Below are positions 15,827 through 32,675 of a stretch of DNA of 64,000 bases, piece by piece. Made by a program: the position numbers and the translations under genes. The notes below the pieces were generated by a model. That model saw only the letters and a program-made list of their open reading frames with translations, did not search any database and was not told the DNA's origin. The stretch is taken from sequence record MF327006, one strand, 5' to 3'. Source of the stretch: Shigella phage Sf20. How positions within the stretch are numbered: position 1 is the stretch's first letter; each line of letters begins with the position of its first letter.

Positions 15827-16308
15827 TTTGCTAAATCATTGCAATATTTTAGTGCCTTAGTTTGAAATTCTGCGCTGTTAAGTTCTTCATAACGGTCATA
15901 ATCACCGTTTAATGCTGCCTTTCTTGCTTCTTGCTCTATCTGCATGTCAGACATGATAATACAGCGATCCCGTGCTTTCATCTTCTCAAGTTGTATAGAC
16001 TCTTCTTTCTGCTTGCGCAATTCTTCTTGACGCTTCTTTTCTTCTTGTGCTTTCTCTTCCCGCGCTTCTTTGATTGCATCCTTGAACATCTGCGTTTGTG
16101 GTGCTAAACCAACTTTAACGCGATCCACGTCTCGACGTTCCATTTTAGAAATAAAGCACGATTCGATCTGATCATCACTTGCATATGCTGCTTTACATTC
16201 ACGAAGCAAGAAAACCGGATCTGATTTAGCATTCATCATAGCTTCCATGTTGGCACAACCAGTAAGCATGAATGCAGCCGCAAGACCAATCAGTTTAATC
16301 ATTTTCAT
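15823..16308 (-). CDS. putative lipoprotein
   Basis: Signal peptide with lipobox LTGC near N-terminus; lysine/glutamate-rich coiled region. Confidence 0.55.
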   Translation of the reverse strand: MKMIKLIGLAAAFMLTGCANMEAMMNAKSDPVFLLRECKAAYASDDQIESCFISKMERRDVDRVKVGLAPQTQMFKDAIKEAREEKAQEEKKRQEELRKQKEESIQLEKMKARDRCIIMSDMQIEQEARKAALNGDYDRYEELNSAEFQTKALKYCNDLAK

Positions 16309-17129
16309 TTAGTCACCTCACCGAAAATTGTAAATTGTCTACGATTCTCATCGCCGAAAGATTCTACTACGTCGTTTACCTTGACGCAAGTCCCGCGCGG
16401 TAAAATTACTTCACATTCGCAAGGGTTCCATGCAATTGACCCAACAACAAAACCTTTATGATCTTTTACGTCAATTACCCATGATACATTACAAGAATGT
16501 TGCATCTTTCCGGTCATTGATTCATATCGATTCTCACAATAAAGGCTAGTGCTGTTTGATAGCCATCCTCCAAAGATGATCGGTGTCATGCTGGTCGATA
16601 CAAAGTTTTTAAAGGTAAACTCCTTATCTTCAATGATGCGCTCTATTGTCTGAATGTCAAGATGTTGACCGCGATAAAGAGTACCGTTTAACTTTTCGGT
16701 TTTATCCATGACACAATCCATCAAATCAACAATCTCTGATATCTCATCGGTCATGTCTTCTTCCCCTAAGAGAGCACCATTTACCCATTCGTATTGCTCA
16801 GACACATAATCACATATTGCATTATATTCTGCTGGGGTTATGTTGTTATGTTTGTAATGTTTGAATACATTATCTCCAAAGTCTTCGGAGTGTACTTCAT
16901 ACATCACATTAATGATTTTCTTGACAAATCCATAATCTTGTGTCTCACGCTCAAGGAAGCGGATAACCTTCACATAATCATCAAAGTTAATCTGATCGCT
17001 GATCATCTCAGTGATCATGTAACCATTAATCCCCTCAATGTCATATGTTTCGATGTAATTATCCATACGTTCCATCATTGATTCGCGTGATTCTTCTGAA
17101 AGACGAAAATCCTGTAATTTCTTGAACAT
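16305..17129 (-). CDS. ADP-ribosyltransferase (Alt/Mod family paralog)
   Basis: R-S-E triad context: LYRGQHLD, FVSTS, ECEVILPRG; closely mirrors the C-terminal catalytic region of the adjacent alt gene. Confidence 0.65.
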   Translation of the reverse strand: MFKKLQDFRLSEESRESMMERMDNYIETYDIEGINGYMITEMISDQINFDDYVKVIRFLERETQDYGFVKKIINVMYEVHSEDFGDNVFKHYKHNNITPAEYNAICDYVSEQYEWVNGALLGEEDMTDEISEIVDLMDCVMDKTEKLNGTLYRGQHLDIQTIERIIEDKEFTFKNFVSTSMTPIIFGGWLSNSTSLYCENRYESMTGKMQHSCNVSWVIDVKDHKGFVVGSIAWNPCECEVILPRGTCVKVNDVVESFGDENRRQFTIFGEVTK

Positions 17130-17207: not shown

Positions 17208-19333
17208 TTACATTTTAAATTTATCTGGCATTGCGTCTACAGATACCAGGTCAGCGATAAGCTGACGTAGAGTTGCCTTATCTGCTTTCTTACGTTCGGT
17301 TTTAGCTTCGCTAATGAAGCTGGAGAAAGACAGGTCAGAAGCAGGTTTAACAACACCTTCACGGATGAATGCATCACCGTCCGCGATCATCTCGCCAGAT
17401 TCTTGTAATGCTGCCAGTTCATTTTTGTTCATAATATGTGCCTCAATGTAATAAGTTTCTTGTGAATCCGTCGATGCCGTAGCACGAGTTACCGTATCAA
17501 AGGATAACACAACACCGCGAGGAAGTAAAATCTCGCATTCTTTGTAAGCAAATGCTTTGTTACCTACTGGCAAGACAGGGATGTTTTCCGCGCCAGCAAT
17601 GGAGAAAGCAACATTAGCGCCACCTTCACCGCGAGAGCCAGCCATAGAATCAACACCAGCAACGGCACTAGCCACGTTTGCATTCCAGCCGCCAAAAATT
17701 CACCGCGAGAGCCAGCCATAGAATCAACACCAGCAACGGCACTAGCCACGTTTGCATTCCAGCCGCCAAAAATGTTAGGTGCAAGGGAAGTGCTCACATA
17801 GTTTTTAAAGTAAAACGCTTTTTGCTTACGTGCAGTTTCCCACATTTGCGACCGGAAGTCCATACCACGATACAGAATAGTACCCGGATCAAGTTTAACA
17901 CCATAGTTAGAGAAGGCATTATCCAGTGCATCGCACATCTTGACCAATTCTTCTGGATCTGCGATTCCCTCAAACTCTTCCAGCTTACGATCAGTTAGGA
18001 AGTTGTTCATATTGATGTATGCTGCATCGGCATATTCGCTCAACACAAAACCTTCCGCGCCTGGCAGATCAAGATCAATATCTGCCATCATTTCACCCAT
18101 GTTGCTAGCAATTGCTTCAAACATACCGGAGGCAACATTACGTAGGGCATCGGTTTTAATCTGGGTGATATGACTACGCAGCATTTCAGCTTTTACATCT
18201 GCTGGCATAGACTGGTCTACTCGATCCATTGCCAAGGCGGTGATCTTGTTTTCGAATACTTCCTCGCTCATGATTTCTTTTAAGCGTTTGACCGAGGCTG
18301 CGATAACTTCCGCAGACAATGGGTCATATTGATCCTGAACTTTTACCAGTTCGCTTACTGCGTATTTTGCATCGGCTTCGCTTTCAAAAATAGTACGCAT
18401 GAAACCATAGCGAGTGATAATATCACTTGTCCAGTCATTCAGAGAACGGGCGGTTGAACGTTCTAAGGCTTGACGGTCAATCAGAGTATTAAACTGTTTC
18501 TTAGGTTCTGCTTCGGTGATATCTTCTTCCGGTTTAAGATTAATTTTTTCTGGATGATTCACATAGTCGCTGTTATAGGTCGCTTGAGTTTTCAGCATTT
18601 CTTCTTTAGTCAAACGAGATTTAGCCGCTACGCGTTGTTCTGCTTCCGCGTTTCGTTCTTCTTCTGACACAAGACTAGCCGCATACGCCTCATCTTTAGT
18701 CAGAGATTCACCAGTAGCCTTAGATACCCAGCGATCACCTAAATCACTTTCTACTTTAGTGAACAAGGATTCATCAAGTTTAATCCCTTTAATCTTATCA
18801 ATCGCCATCCCGCGACGCTTGACAACAACTAAAGCGATCTTTTTGCTGGTCATTACTTCCTGCTGGAATACTTCAAACTTCGGTGTACGACGCACCAAAC
18901 GCTCTATAACGCGCTTAACCAGTTCGGTCTTACCTTTCATGCGGGATACGTTAAAACGGAACATAACAGCGTCTAATTGAGCTTTACGGGCTGTTTCCAT
19001 AACCACATCAAAAGCACTTGCCATAACTGCAATCGGGTTATCGCCTAGACCATTTTTAAGCTGTATAATACGACCGCTTTTGTTCATTTCGCACAGTACA
19101 ACATGTGCGGTCTTGTCACCCATACGAATGATTTTAGGTGTTTTGTTGGTGAAGTTGCAAAGACGGACAATCACATCTTTATCGCGTGTCTGTACTGCAA
19201 AAAGCTGTTTAGGATTCTGCTTAGGCTTTAAGCACTGTACAGGAGCAATACTGCCAAAGTTTTCTTCCTCTTCCGTCAACAGCCATTTCTCGAAAGATTC
19301 AATCATTAGATCGTCGATTTCTAAGTTAAACAT
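17208..19333 (-). pseudogene. alt: alt ADP-ribosyltransferase, reading frame split by a 74-bp tandem duplication (ORFs 17564..19333 and 17208..17675)
   Basis: Upstream ORF ends ...FKNYVSTSLAPNIFGG...VAGVDSMAGSRGE then garbage; downstream ORF begins ASAVAGVDSMAGSRGE... and carries ECEILLPRG; removing one repeat copy gives a 684-aa protein (T4 Alt is 682 aa). Confidence 0.75.
17625..17772. repeat. perfect tandem duplication, 2 x 74 bp (17625-17698 and 17699-17772)
   Basis: Unit TTCACCGCGAGAGCCAGCCATAGAATCAACACCAGCAACGGCACTAGCCACGTTTGCATTCCAGCCGCCAAAAA repeated head-to-tail; 74 is not a multiple of 3. Confidence 0.9.
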
Positions 19334-27376: not shown

Positions 27377-27721
27377 TTATTTTTTCATGAGCTTAATGGC
27401 TTCTTCCATAGCCAGCACATTTCGATAGTTAGGGTATCGTGTTAGATCGTCATACATTCGCTTAAGGGTGGAAACTTCCTCAAACTCTGGGTTTTCTAGA
27501 TACAGTTGAACAAATTGTTTCTCTACCATCTCTGCTTTTAGCTTGTCTGCTTGTTCCTGTTCATATGATTTCGTTGGACCCAACACCAACAAAATGATAA
27601 AGGTGATCAACGGGCTAATGATCAATGATAGGATAACATAACCGATAACGCTACGGTTTAAACGGCTTGCATACATGCCTACCAGGAAAACAAAAAGGAT
27701 ATAGATAAACAGAAAGAACAT
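27377..27721 (-). CDS. membrane protein (two N-terminal TM helices)
   Basis: Hydrophobic N-terminal 50 aa followed by a charged coiled region. Confidence 0.5.
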   Translation of the reverse strand: MFFLFIYILFVFLVGMYASRLNRSVIGYVILSLIISPLITFIILLVLGPTKSYEQEQADKLKAEMVEKQFVQLYLENPEFEEVSTLKRMYDDLTRYPNYRNVLAMEEAIKLMKK

Positions 27722-27728
27722 ATAATGG

Positions 27729-28202
27729 TTACTCCTTATTTTCGCGCTCGTACTTTTCGAAATAAAATTCTACTGGCTGGTCATTAATTGACAGCAATCC
27801 AAAGCGTTTAGCCGCTCGCAATCCCATATTGCGCTGAATGTACTTCTGGAAGTTCTCGCGTATACACTTACGCCAGTATTCTAAGCCCATACAGCTTTTA
27901 TAAAGATTGCATTGCACACACGCCGGATTCATGTTATCAAGTATATCATGTTCCGGTTTATGCATTCCTACAACCTTATACTTCCACGATCCATCATCAT
28001 TACGGGCAATTCGTCCATTTTCATCATAGACTACCTTTGAGCGTCGCAATACTGGTTTGATGTGGTCTGCGTGCCAGCGATCCCCTAGTTCCTCGCCACA
28101 ATAGGCACAACGTCCACCATATTTCATTTTCAGGATCTGTCGTTGCTCTTTCTTTGACAATTTTTTAGGTTTAGGGGCTTTCGCCCCTTCATTATCACAC
28201 AT
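27729..28202 (-). CDS. HNH endonuclease (freestanding homing-endonuclease-like)
   Basis: CAYCGEELGDRWHADHIKP...CVQCN: HNH/zinc-finger signature. Confidence 0.7.
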   Translation of the reverse strand: MCDNEGAKAPKPKKLSKKEQRQILKMKYGGRCAYCGEELGDRWHADHIKPVLRRSKVVYDENGRIARNDDGSWKYKVVGMHKPEHDILDNMNPACVQCNLYKSCMGLEYWRKCIRENFQKYIQRNMGLRAAKRFGLLSINDQPVEFYFEKYERENKE

Positions 28203-29697
28203 CGAATACCTCTTTTACTGTATTTGCAGTGGTCTTGTCGTAGCGAATACGTTTGATGATTGGGAGAAATAAAGAGAACTCCGGTTCATCTTCTTTACGT
28301 GATTTGCTGCGAATGTACCCGTTGCATGTCATCTCAATGACTTTTCCAATCAGGTTATGACGGTCAGCCCATAACATTTCTCGGTCGAGTTCATTTCGAC
28401 GATCGAACGGAATTACACGTTCAGTACCATCATCACCTTTTTCGGTTGTAGTGTCGGTTAATCCCGATCCGGTGTTAGTCATCATTCGTCCGCACGCACT
28501 ACGGACAGTAAAACCGCCTACCTTATTGGGGTCTTTACTATGCGGATATACATCAACAATTTCCGCGTCGAAGTCAATCACTTCTTTAAATTTAACCTGA
28601 TCTTTACTACGGCGATCTTCAAATACACCATGTAAATTTTTAAGGATAATACCTTCTAAGCCCATGTTTACATAGCGATGATATACTTCGCGAGCTTCAT
28701 CTATATTGTTAACTACAGTGTTTTCGATTATCTGAACACGAGGATCGTTAAGTTCTTCAACAATCTGTTTTAGTTCTTCGAATCGATCTTTATATTGCTT
28801 CGTTGCTTTCTCGTTTCCGTAATACACATCACGGTCGATAACATCCCAGACAGTGTAAACAATACATTGGGCTTCTTCTTTTGGAATAGTTCCTTTCAGT
28901 GATTTGTTGAGGATACCATTTCCGGTCTGACGATCTGCAACAACGGATTCTTTTACTGCTTCCGCTACTGGCGTTAATGGCATTTCCTCTTCTTCAAATA
29001 TCCATGACAGAGTACCATCATAAACGCTTTCAACGAAGTTCTGCGCTGGTGTTTGCGAAAGGGTAGGCATATATACCAATTCCCCATCTAGAACAATTCC
29101 ACGGCCTCGTAGACGCTCTAGAACAGCAAACAAATCATCAAGTCCCTGATAGGTATTACCTGAACGGGTATAGATTGCTAATGTTTCCCCGTCAATATCA
29201 GCCATCCCACGAGCGCCATCGCTTTTAAGTTGTGCATACGCCGGATACTTGATATTAGCAATAGTCTTATCAGAACATGACGATGCAAGGTGGCACGGTT
29301 GCTGAGGGATCAGTTTCTTCCATACCTTGTTTGCAGTGGTAGCGGAACAACCACATTCCAGATCACGATTCAGGACCATCATTGCAACTTTAGCATCATC
29401 CTCTGACAAGCAAGTCAGAGTATCGGTAACTAGCTGTAATGCTGCATTACCAGTTACTTGACGCGTGGCAAGTTTATTTTTAAAGACCTGTAATGCACCG
29501 GATAAAGACAATACAGACGAATAGCGAGATGGTTTATCGTATTTCTTTACGCCAAACGTAACCTGTTTGCAATATGCCAGATAAAAGCATTCTTTCAGCG
29601 TTTCATTGCTTGCTGATTCTTTCAGAATCTTTTCTTTCAGCGATGTTTTGTCTGTTGCTGCAAGCTGATTAATGATATTAAGAATTGACATTTTCAC
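28195..29697 (-). CDS. 30: ATP-dependent DNA ligase gp30
   Basis: Adenylation motif KSDGARG (KxDGxR), size 500 aa, synteny alt-30-31. Confidence 0.85.
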   Translation of the reverse strand: MKMSILNIINQLAATDKTSLKEKILKESASNETLKECFYLAYCKQVTFGVKKYDKPSRYSSVLSLSGALQVFKNKLATRQVTGNAALQLVTDTLTCLSEDDAKVAMMVLNRDLECGCSATTANKVWKKLIPQQPCHLASSCSDKTIANIKYPAYAQLKSDGARGMADIDGETLAIYTRSGNTYQGLDDLFAVLERLRGRGIVLDGELVYMPTLSQTPAQNFVESVYDGTLSWIFEEEEMPLTPVAEAVKESVVADRQTGNGILNKSLKGTIPKEEAQCIVYTVWDVIDRDVYYGNEKATKQYKDRFEELKQIVEELNDPRVQIIENTVVNNIDEAREVYHRYVNMGLEGIILKNLHGVFEDRRSKDQVKFKEVIDFDAEIVDVYPHSKDPNKVGGFTVRSACGRMMTNTGSGLTDTTTEKGDDGTERVIPFDRRNELDREMLWADRHNLIGKVIEMTCNGYIRSKSRKEDEPEFSLFLPIIKRIRYDKTTANTVKEVFDV

Positions 29698-30157
29698 CTC
29701 GTTTTGTTAAACGTTCACGAATATCATTGAGGATACTACAAAATTCCGATTCAGTCAATATAGTCTTTAACGGATCAGTTCCACCTATACTATGACGTAA
29801 TTTCTTATTTCCGGTAGAGAGTAATGCTTTACAAAATTCTGGGTTATTCCGTGCCATCGTAACAAATGCCAGATGTACCAGTCTGTAATAATGCTCACTC
29901 ATTCGATGAATAGGGCGACCCTGAAAATATAACATGTGATTCTCAATCTTTTCAGTTCTTCCGGTTCTTTTTGCTTTGCCACCGTGCATCAAAAAGATTT
30001 CTCTTTGTCTCTGAGGGTTCTTAAATCTTAGCCCCTGTAAAAATCCTTCTGTGCTGTTAATATCGCAACCAAATAGACGGAATGGTCTTTTATTGAAATT
30101 ACTCAATTCACCCGATGGATAAGGTCCACCCGCATAGATATCAATTTCAGAAGTCAT
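29678..30157 (-). CDS. NADAR/YbiA-like (DUF1768) protein
   Basis: LSNFNKRPF...EGFLQGLRF and ALLSTGNKKL match the YbiA/NADAR family signature. Confidence 0.65.
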   Translation of the reverse strand: MTSEIDIYAGGPYPSGELSNFNKRPFRLFGCDINSTEGFLQGLRFKNPQRQREIFLMHGGKAKRTGRTEKIENHMLYFQGRPIHRMSEHYYRLVHLAFVTMARNNPEFCKALLSTGNKKLRHSIGGTDPLKTILTESEFCSILNDIRERLTKRGENVNS

Positions 30158-30393
30158 TGAAACTAATCTCGCTAATCAGAGAGAACGGATCATAATCGTC
30201 ATTAGGAATATCGATAGTAATCGAATGAGGATTTACCCATACACCAAACTGGTCTTCTTCGGTGAATACTTCGGTATGGATTTCGTGGATGTTTACATTC
30301 ATAGTTTTCATAATAAAATTCCTTAATAATCAATAACTTACAAAATCATATAGCCAAAATATAGGCGGGATTATTTCCCGCCGTTTAAAATCA

Positions 30394-30717
30394 TTAACCG
30401 TAAACTACCACAATATTCTGTTTGTGCGTTACAGTCCATTTCAGGTCGATCTCTTCTTCCTTCTTAACGCCGTTAATAACGTCTGGATGAGGAACTTTAT
30501 TCATCTTGCCATGTGGCAGTAGAACAGTTTTACCCAGCAATTCTTTATCTACCGTCTCGCCAATATCAATAATCTTACCTACCAGCGGAATCTCGCCCAT
30601 AGTGCGCTTTTGCTCAATAATGATTCCCATAGAGCTTTTTACTTCGGTCCCTGCGCTTTCTGCTTTAGCTTCGATAATTACATAATCACCAAGTGCTTTA
30701 GGAGTTTTAACGGTCAT
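30394..30717 (-). CDS. 31: gp31 head assembly co-chaperonin (GroES-like)
   Basis: ALGDYVIIE, GIIIEQKRTMGEIP, KVPHPDV align with T4 gp31; size 107 aa. Confidence 0.7.
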   Translation of the reverse strand: MTVKTPKALGDYVIIEAKAESAGTEVKSSMGIIIEQKRTMGEIPLVGKIIDIGETVDKELLGKTVLLPHGKMNKVPHPDVINGVKKEEEIDLKWTVTHKQNIVVVYG

Positions 30718-30758
30718 AATTTTATTACCTCTTCAAATCAATACAGTTTAATGATGAA

Positions 30759-31079
30759 TTATTTATAAATTTCGACGATCTGCGCTGGAGTCAGCCCGTC
30801 TACATTAATCAGACTATCAAGCCCAAAACTACGGAAACCTTCAACTGCAATTTCATATACTGGCAAAGATGTTTCTGATTCTTTACGCGGTTTTTCAACA
30901 TTAGGAACTAACCACTTTTCGTATGTTTCAAACGGCATCAGTGCCGGATCTCGCGTGGCGATCATCTCACGGACAGTACCATCTTTCTTAGTAAACTGCA
31001 AAGAGTGAGTACCGACCGAAAACATTTTCTTTAGTGCTTCACGAAGTGCGATATTATCAACTTGTTCAGTCATTATCAA
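30759..31079 (-). CDS. hypothetical protein (106 aa)
   Basis: ORF between gene 31 and cd. Confidence 0.45.
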   Translation of the reverse strand: MIMTEQVDNIALREALKKMFSVGTHSLQFTKKDGTVREMIATRDPALMPFETYEKWLVPNVEKPRKESETSLPVYEIAVEGFRSFGLDSLINVDGLTPAQIVEIYK

Positions 31080-31572
31080 TACCCTTCAAATCAGTCAATA
31101 ATGCTTTTGGAATACGCGTGATCGTAATATCTGCATTATTCAGAATATCAGCCCAATCACGCCCACCATTTCGGTCATATGTGTCGCAATAGTATAAATG
31201 TTTAATTCCACTGTTTGCAATTGCTTTAGCGCAATCTGGACACGGTGAAGCAGTACACCACATACTAGCGCCTTCAATCGATACCCCGCTACGGGCAGCA
31301 AACAAAATAGCATTTAATTCAGCGTGGATCTCGTTTTTCTGTGACCATGCACTATGCTCTGGTCGTTTTTCTGGGATCATTTTGCCGTCATCATCCAGCC
31401 AACCGTTTTTATGTGCATGACAGCTACAATTTACTTGCCCTGCTGGAGTTCCGTTAAATCCAGTAGAAATGATTCGCCCGTCTTTTTCGATCAGTGCGCC
31501 TACCTTCCACGAAACACATTTAGAGTTCTTTGCGATCAGATAGGCGATCTGCATGTAAGTTTGTGACAACAT
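31066..31572 (-). CDS. cd: dCMP deaminase
   Basis: Zinc-binding deaminase motifs HAELNAI and PCPDC. Confidence 0.85.
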   Translation of the reverse strand: MLSQTYMQIAYLIAKNSKCVSWKVGALIEKDGRIISTGFNGTPAGQVNCSCHAHKNGWLDDDGKMIPEKRPEHSAWSQKNEIHAELNAILFAARSGVSIEGASMWCTASPCPDCAKAIANSGIKHLYYCDTYDRNGGRDWADILNNADITITRIPKALLTDLKGIDND

Positions 31573-31593
31573 AATATAATCCTCACATAGTAA

Positions 31594-31797
31594 TTAACCG
31601 TATACGCGAAAGTATTCTACTGATCCGTCGCTATACTGTTTTACATTGAATGTATTCACACCATGATTATTTCTCATGATGACATATACACTGCGACGTT
31701 CATCGCTAAACGGCATAACTGGCGCTGGTTCAATATCAACACTAAAACCACGTTTAGCAAGTGCTTCGCCTAATTGCTTGAGTTTATCGGTAAACAT
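31594..31797 (-). CDS. hypothetical protein (67 aa)
   Basis: ORF coupled to pseT. Confidence 0.4.
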   Translation of the reverse strand: MFTDKLKQLGEALAKRGFSVDIEPAPVMPFSDERRSVYVIMRNNHGVNTFNVKQYSDGSVEYFRVYG

Positions 31798-32675
31798 TAA
31801 AAGTCTCCGTAGTTAACCTGAAAACATTCTACACCAATTGAGCGGTACATGTCAACCACTTGATCACGGTCATCTACTGCCAAAACAACATGATAACGCG
31901 GTGCAATTTCAGAGAAGAAAATCTCTTTCTTTACTTCATGATCAGGACGACGATCATTAGTTTCACGCTGGAAGTGATCGCTAGGTTCAATACCCTGTTC
32001 ACGCAGCCATTGCAGAGTATCTTCTTCGCAAACATCCTCACGCCCTGAGCATGTAATGATACGATAACCATTATCACGATACAGTTTAAGCATTTCGATC
32101 ACTTGCGGACGCGGTTTATCTTCTTTGACCTTTGTCCAGTCAAACGGATGACGACCGCCCTTATCCGCTAATGTCCCATCAATATCAAAGATCACCGCTT
32201 TCGGTAGCATGGTATTCGGTTTGTATACTTCTTGACCCATATATTCCTGCATCAGATAAAATTGGTTACGCAAATGAGAAAGTGGAATTGCTTTCTCGCC
32301 GCGATAGAAATTACGTTTCTTTAGTGTCTCAAACGGTTCATTGAACACTTGTTCAGTATACACCGCGTTAAATTCTTTTGCAAGTTCTTTGTAGAATACA
32401 CGATGTTTTTCTTTCAGGTTGGTATCAGAGATAATGAGACTCAATCCGCGTGATAGAGTCTCACGAGCAATCATTCTCTGAATAGACTCTACCAGCTTTT
32501 CTTTTTCCTTAGTATACTTGTATTTCAAAAGTGAGTCAACACCAAACAACATAAGACGAAGATCATCACGATTCACATTACGATAATTACTAAACCGTTT
32601 ACATGTTTCCATAGCCCATGTAGTTTTACCGGACCCAGAACAACCAACGGTTAAAATCACTTCACATTTCGGCAT
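31797..32675 (-). CDS. pseT: polynucleotide 5'-kinase/3'-phosphatase
   Basis: P-loop GCSGSGKTTWA, HAD motif IFDIDGTLA, C-terminal LAVDDRDQVVDMYRSIGVECFQV as in T4 Pnk; start MPKCEV with AGGAG RBS. Confidence 0.9.
   Translation of the reverse strand: MPKCEVILTVGCSGSGKTTWAMETCKRFSNYRNVNRDDLRLMLFGVDSLLKYKYTKEKEKLVESIQRMIARETLSRGLSLIISDTNLKEKHRVFYKELAKEFNAVYTEQVFNEPFETLKKRNFYRGEKAIPLSHLRNQFYLMQEYMGQEVYKPNTMLPKAVIFDIDGTLADKGGRHPFDWTKVKEDKPRPQVIEMLKLYRDNGYRIITCSGREDVCEEDTLQWLREQGIEPSDHFQRETNDRRPDHEVKKEIFFSEIAPRYHVVLAVDDRDQVVDMYRSIGVECFQVNYGDF

Follow-up and report, generated by a model that had tools for sequence, protein, structure and literature searches.

Among NADAR proteins, the phage group of De Souza and Aravind consists of the gp30.3 proteins, which carry a histidine in the last strand, where the YbiA type has glutamate and the DarG1/DarT-associated type aspartate (PMC11125620; PMC11543638). 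The superfamily as a whole shares three conserved residues, among them the serine of the LSNF motif (PMC12945103). In vitro, gp30.3 of phage T4 cleaves guanine-ADP-ribose but not thymidine-ADP-ribose (PMC11125620), nor is cytidine-ADP-ribose hydrolyzed (PMC12945103). Resistance of T-even phages to DarTG1 was mapped by Johannesman et al. (Nat Commun 2025) to gene 30.3, renamed adfN, and T4 AdfN removes ADP-ribose from DarT1-modified DNA (PMC11825919). The substitutions E36A and K43A each impair T4 AdfN, with K43A giving just a partial rescue, and function is reduced when the last 15 residues are missing, whether through a natural frameshift in RB69 or through truncation of T4 AdfN (PMC11825919). 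T4 AdfN is fully effective only in T-even infections, irrespective of cytosine modification (PMC11825919), and may therefore need another phage factor. T4 AdfN gives uninfected cells no rescue from DarT1, and on DarTG1 hosts T5 and Bas25 benefit from it only slightly. A transposon screen found T4 adfN to be dispensable on K-12 and needed on a DarTG1 host (bioRxiv 10.1101/2025.11.20.689424). In the DarG1 antitoxin of E. coli C7, the K95R substitution keeps hydrolysis of guanine-ADP-ribose (G-ADPr) in vitro but abolishes rescue of cells from DarT1 (PMC11543638). Literature pairing Krischvirus, RB49, or JSE with DarTG, DarT1, or DarTG1 was sought, and nothing relevant was found.

A gp30.3 Ortholog in Shigella Phage Sf20

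The window analyzed here is a 64,000-nt stretch of Shigella phage Sf20 (sequence record MF327006). It contains an ORF that is very probably the Krischvirus ortholog of T4 30.3 (adfN), encoding an orphan-antitoxin enzyme that would clear replicating phage DNA of the ADP-ribose that DarT1 attaches to guanines. The gene and its landmarks are as follows:

29678..30157, minus strand: 30.3/adfN ortholog, a 159-aa single-domain phage-type NADAR, with the ATG start of the ORF listing
30095..30106, minus strand: LSNF motif, aa 18-21, including the superfamily-conserved Ser19 (family alignment)
30023..30049, minus strand: active-site helix EGFLQGLRF, aa 37-45 (T4 pairwise and profile alignments)
30047-30049, minus strand: Glu37 codon, equivalent to T4 E36
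30026-30028, minus strand: Arg44 codon AGA, T4 counterpart K43
29792..29824, minus strand: LLSTGNKKLRH, aa 112-122, last helix and strand, ending at His122
29792-29794, minus strand: His122 codon, aligned with T4 H123, the phage NADAR hallmark
29687..29752, minus strand: C-terminal α-helix, aa 136-157, intact (DSSP on the model and T4 alignment)

A first-pass annotation made from the sequence alone had called a gene at exactly these coordinates, and the ORF is real: it begins with ATG and matches both PF08010, "Bacteriophage protein GP30.3" (E = 6.5e-38; 130.1 bits against a cutoff of 36; profile positions 2-138 of 138), and phrog_652, a group of unknown function (E = 9e-45), far beyond chance. 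The three motifs cited in that annotation, LSNFNKRPF, EGFLQGLRF, and LLSTGNKKL, are all present, at aa 18-26, 37-45, and 112-120 of the 159-aa protein. BLASTP against T4 gp30.3 gave 38% identity over 151 columns and residues 3-150 (E = 6e-30), and within the two regions compared, T4 gp30.3 has no match in the window other than this ORF. The gene was also checked for an internal ORF in another frame comparable to T4 30.3′; a frame scan of 29678..30157 found no open stretch longer than 37 codons in the other frames.

The same annotation had placed the protein in the NADAR/YbiA (DUF1768) family. Membership of the NADAR superfamily and fold stands, but strict membership of PF08719 (YbiA/NADAR/DUF1768) does not, the score of 15.6 bits (E = 0.02) lying below the cutoff of 35.1, and the protein belongs to the sister family PF08010. 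Since the PF08719 score is below threshold, the NADAR relationship rests on the profile and fold evidence given below. The match to NCBIfam NF053876, "NADAR family anti-phage protein," is likewise far below threshold (E = 0.016; 14.3 bits; cutoff 240), and both subthreshold matches were taken as hints only. PADLOC gave no match for the 30.3 ortholog.

A word-indexed protein search gave just seven relatives; the family statistics and structure alignment needed HMMER, run exhaustively against 1.84 billion representatives, which found 967 clusters at E ≤ 0.001. By tblastn, relatives were detected in 1509 phage records, mainly T4-like phages of Escherichia, Klebsiella, Aeromonas, Acinetobacter, and Vibrio. 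In a megablast of positions 29000-31000, 59 phage records matched at 95-99% identity, and every one is an RB49/JSE-like Krischvirus phage of Escherichia or Shigella; the record's taxonomy places this genus in the Straboviridae outside the Tevenvirinae. The 30.3 copy is intact in 59 of 59 Krischvirus records, with protein identity of at least 95%, and in most of them the ORF is labeled "hypothetical protein."

Of the 155 family representatives, some half exceed 200 aa (P0014, P0045, P0059, P0064, and P0147 among others). In some, the gp30.3-type NADAR is joined to a calcineurin-like metallophosphoesterase, a UPF0227 α/β-hydrolase, Lgt, or BspA-type LRRs, and other long representatives carry two NADAR domains in tandem or have unannotated stretches of ~300 aa added. 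Some of the long NADAR fusions may be gene-calling fusions.

Fold and Conserved Residues

When the PDB was searched with the single sequence, the top match was DltA (E = 7e-4), which proved misleading, as a profile search gave YbiA and Phytophthora NADAR. The best two matches to the profile of 80 family members were E. coli YbiA (2b3w; E = 1.9e-4) and Phytophthora NADAR (8bau; E = 0.08), and in the profile alignments the LSNF and E-x6-K motifs are in register with both structures, the LSNF of the 30.3 product pairing with FSNF in YbiA and with LSNF in PnNADAR. An AlphaFold2 model built from the family alignment is of very high confidence, with a mean pLDDT of 95.9 and a pTM of 0.90, and Foldseek of the model against the PDB returned 2b3w (E = 1.4e-5) and 8bau (E = 1.5e-3), with nothing further below E = 2.9. 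The 30.3 product as modeled has the NADAR fold. The first-pass annotation had named lack of a NADAR fold on structure prediction as an outcome that would count against its assignment; the predicted fold is present, because Foldseek returns 2b3w and 8bau for the model.

Residue conservation was counted in the alignment columns of 160 domain matches from the 155 representatives:

Ser19 (T4 Ser18): serine in 150 of 160
Asn20 (T4 Asn19): asparagine in 152 of 160
Glu37 (T4 Glu36): glutamate in 154 of 160
Arg44 (T4 Lys43): lysine in 144 of 160, arginine in 10 of 160
His122 (T4 His123): histidine in 153 of 160

Ser19 and Glu37 are conserved and are separated by 18 residues, the same spacing as S69 and E87 of SCO5665, its substrate-channel serine and glutamate. 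The conserved His122 occupies the position of the last-strand glutamate of the YbiA type (Pn E125). The alignment reaches the final residue of T4 gp30.3, and residues 136-157 form a C-terminal helix in the model; the helix that is lost in RB69 is thus retained here. The diphosphate-binding lysine, found seven residues past the glutamate (T4 K43, Pn K50, EcC7 K95), is absent and is replaced conservatively by Arg44. Several distinct lineages, 39-68% identical to the Sf20 protein, likewise have arginine at this column, and because they keep the serine, glutamate, and histidine, Arg44 looks tolerated. A quantitative effect is nevertheless possible, since DarG1 K95R works in vitro but fails in cells.

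Gene Neighborhood

The features adjoining 30.3 in the window are the following:

28195..29691, minus strand: gene 30, ATP-dependent DNA ligase, directly downstream of 30.3 (PF01068, phrog_114, JSE annotation)
29678..29691, minus strand: 14-nt overlap of the 30.3 3′ end with the ligase ATG (sequence and JSE ligase annotation)
30147..30311, minus strand: 54-aa ORF upstream of 30.3, a hypothetical protein in JSE (ORF listing; phrog_15277, E = 3.7e-42)
30364..30382, minus strand: GC-rich hairpin with a T-run after it, in the gap separating gene 31 from the 54-aa ORF (consensus scan)

The ligase matches PF01068 (E = 2.8e-22) and phrog_114 (E = 1.4e-141). Its start is more probably the ATG at 29691, which is preceded by GAGG and is the start annotated in phage JSE; the overlap with 30.3 is accordingly 14 nt, whereas the alternative GTG at 29697 would make it 20 nt. 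The overlap between the two genes reported in the first-pass annotation is therefore real yet small, and it is in itself unremarkable. The GAGG, the ligase ribosome-binding site, falls within 30.3. On the other side, the stop of the 54-aa ORF and the start of 30.3 overlap by 11 nt, making translational coupling likely, and overlaps this short would fit coupled translation within one minus-strand gene block. The 54-aa protein is conserved and acidic, and phrog_15277 is a group of unknown function; no similarity was found to T4 30.4, which holds the equivalent position. The hairpin at 30364..30382 is terminator-like in sequence, although the consensus scan gave no more sites than did shuffled sequences. 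In a promoter scan of 27500-32000, sites were no commoner than in shuffled sequence, and no minus-strand site was found between gene 31 and the 54-aa ORF.

Phage JSE annotates the ORF as gene 30.3, within the one-strand order pseT, cd.2, cd, 31.1, 31, small ORF, 30.3, 30 (ligase), and HNH endonuclease. The T4 order is broadly alike, but 30.1 and 30.2 sit between 30.3 and 30. Homologs of T4 30.1, 30.2, and 30.4, which are possible partner genes, were not detected anywhere in the window at E ≤ 0.1. The HNH endonuclease gene of the window (27729..28202, minus strand; PF01844; phrog_2118, E = 5e-54) overlaps the ligase stop by 8 nt and is possibly a homing endonuclease insertion; JSE too has it downstream of the ligase gene, and the corresponding place in T4 is occupied by alt.1 and alt. 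The gp31.1 homolog (30759..31079, minus strand) belongs to the WYL_2/Sm-like SH3 β-barrel family (PF10902, E = 1.2e-9), and the label "tail fiber protein" that it bears in several records is probably wrong.

As the first-pass annotation had noted, the phage encodes ADP-ribosyltransferases: an Alt ortholog, frameshifted in the window, and a 274-aa PF03496 protein. The alt gene (17208..19333, minus strand) contains a perfect 74-nt tandem duplication at 17625..17773 (2.0 copies, 100% match), and because 74 is not a multiple of three, the reading frame is shifted: the ORF at 17564..19333 (589 aa) stops early with a partial ADP-ribosyltransferase domain, and the remainder lies in another frame at 17208..17675. 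The duplication is absent from the best 12 Krischvirus records, in each of which the 351-nt query spans 277 nt. Either it arose recently and inactivates the gene, or it is an artifact of assembly. The second ADP-ribosyltransferase (16305..17129, minus strand; PF03496, E = 4.3e-16) is intact, lies just downstream of alt, and is labeled "similar to C-terminal part of T4 Alt" in RB49.

Proposed Function and Alternatives

By analogy with the T4 ortholog and other NADARs, the 30.3 product is predicted to be a guanine-ADP-ribose glycohydrolase with an anti-DarTG1 role. It would be a stand-alone, core-only NADAR-fold enzyme expressed from a minus-strand gene block shared with the DNA ligase gene. In an infected DarTG1-type host, DarT1 would ADP-ribosylate phage DNA at the guanine N2 amino group, blocking replication; the phage NADAR would then bind the ADP-ribose and cleave the guanine-ribose N-glycosidic bond, giving back unmodified DNA. 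Glu37 and His122 are expected to act at the distal ribose and Arg44, replacing the usual lysine, at the diphosphate. The first-pass suggestion that the protein could counter host ADP-ribosylating, DarT-type toxins agrees with what has been demonstrated for T4 gp30.3/AdfN (PMC11825919; PMC11125620; bioRxiv 10.1101/2025.11.20.689424) and would hold for Sf20 by analogy; the experiment it proposed was the right one and has already been carried out with the T4 ortholog. Several points count against an AdfN-type role: the identity to T4 AdfN is 38%, the lysine is replaced by Arg44, the T4 neighbors 30.1, 30.2, and 30.4 are absent, PF08719 is below threshold, PADLOC is blank, T4 AdfN is possibly partner-dependent, and DarG1 K95R fails in vivo. 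All alternative explanations nonetheless rank well below the AdfN-type explanation.

Of these alternatives the one that survives best, though we think it unlikely, is that the same fold and chemistry serve a wider or different target, such as guanine ADP-ribose on RNA or other guanine-directed toxins or defenses, with DarTG1 one of several. NADARs of all four families, the T4 phage NADAR included, are reported to act on G-ADPr in both RNA and DNA (PMC12945103), and the family is very large, with 967 representative clusters, and extends over phages of many hosts. However, the sole in vivo phenotype demonstrated for an ortholog concerns DarTG1 hosts, and the literature cited here shows no other phage defense that ADP-ribosylates guanine.

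It is improbable that Arg44 marks a weakened or nonprotective variant with a NADAR fold that is too inefficient for protection or that binds instead of catalyzing. The scarcity of arginine at this column (10 of the 160 matches, against 144 with lysine), the inability of DarG1 K95R to rescue cells from DarT1 toxicity despite its in vitro activity (PMC11543638), and the partial rescue by T4 K43A (PMC11825919) would all fit such a loss. Yet the recurrence of arginine in several lineages with serine, glutamate, and histidine suggests tolerance, arginine preserves the positive charge required for diphosphate binding, and the gene is intact in every one of the 59 Krischvirus records. Four codons differ between the window and JSE 30.3 alleles, three synonymously and one nonsynonymously, a count too small to decide the matter.

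Returning to the AdfN-type explanation, a speculative extension of it, which we hold to be doubtful, is that the lysine-to-arginine change at the diphosphate position, recurrent in a minority of gp30.3-type NADARs, marks a functional subtype. If so, the Arg44 subtype might differ from T4 AdfN in efficiency, partner dependence, or substrate range, being tuned, for example, to another guanine-ADP-ribosylating toxin or to RNA, and the Krischviruses would be a natural test of the in vitro activity of DarG1 K95R versus its in vivo failure. Arg44 thus poses a small, directly testable question about the conserved lysine in NADAR catalysis in vivo.

The first-pass annotation had also raised regulation of the phage's own Alt/Mod-type modifications, and for this we found no support. 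That the 30.3 product erases the phage's own protein ADP-ribosylation is very improbable, even though the Alt ortholog and the 274-aa ADP-ribosyltransferase are encoded on the same strand of the window ~10-13 kb away and T4 alt lies near genes 30 and 30.3. In the literature cited, the one activity reported for the T4 NADAR is on ADP-ribose linked to guanine in nucleic acids, and NADAR substrates are nucleobase-linked ADP-ribose and riboflavin intermediates, with neither hydrolysis of protein-linked ADP-ribose nor a direct negative test of it reported. T4 adfN is nonessential on plain K-12, its phenotype being limited to DarTG1 hosts (bioRxiv 10.1101/2025.11.20.689424), and the nearest relatives of the family are DarT1-associated antitoxins (PMC11825919).

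Least credible of all is that the protein, like YbiA, serves as a housekeeping N-glycosidase for reactive intermediates of the riboflavin pathway. Sequence profile and fold both give E. coli YbiA as the top match, but the last-strand glutamate defining YbiA is a histidine here, PF08719 is subthreshold, gp30.3-type phage NADARs group closest to DarG1 and not YbiA (PMC11825919), and a lytic phage has no evident need of riboflavin damage control.

The gene is already known, being catalogued as 30.3 and PF08010, and is probably an ordinary phage counterdefense gene; its presence in a Krischvirus, the direct abutment on the ligase gene, and the arginine in place of the conserved lysine are mildly new. 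The ORF can reasonably be relabeled an AdfN-type NADAR, putative anti-DarTG1 DNA ADP-ribosylglycohydrolase, which has little importance beyond annotation. RB49/JSE-group phage-therapy candidates are predicted to be resistant to DarTG1-carrying E. coli.

Comparison with Known Systems

YbiA (2B3W) and Phytophthora NADAR (8BAU) belong to PF08719 and carry the last-strand glutamate, whereas the 30.3 product has histidine and scores 15.6 bits against the PF08719 cutoff of 35.1. YbiA has a housekeeping riboflavin role, and enzymes of the YbiA/NADAR type also strip cytidine-ADP-ribose, which the T4 phage NADAR does not. The DarG1 proteins of E. coli C7 and Geobacter/Trichlorobacter lovleyi (PDB 8BAT) have an N-terminal extension and a last-strand aspartate, and the DarG1 gene adjoins that of its DarT1 toxin; the 30.3 product, in contrast, is core-only at 159 aa with His122 in the last strand, and its gene, an orphan carried by a lytic phage, is flanked by the 54-aa ORF and the ligase gene. 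AdfN(Bas32) and AdfN(Bas60) of T5-like and Vequintavirinae phages are likewise phage orphan NADARs that counter DarTG1 through guanine de-ADP-ribosylation, but they fall in other clades (archaeal-like and bacterial stand-alone-like), were independently acquired, and need no other phage factor (PMC11825919).

The closest system is T4 gp30.3, or AdfN (anti-DarT factor NADAR), also a PF08010 protein with a core-only single domain of ~155 aa. The Krischvirus protein differs from it in having Arg44 for K43 and nine extra C-terminal residues, and the locus differs in the direct overlap of 30.3 with the ligase gene, from which 30.1 and 30.2 separate it in T4, and in having no counterpart of T4 30.3′. 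The two proteins have in common the serine, glutamate, and histidine positions and the C-terminal helix, and in both phages 30.3 lies between gene 31 and the ligase gene 30 on the same strand.
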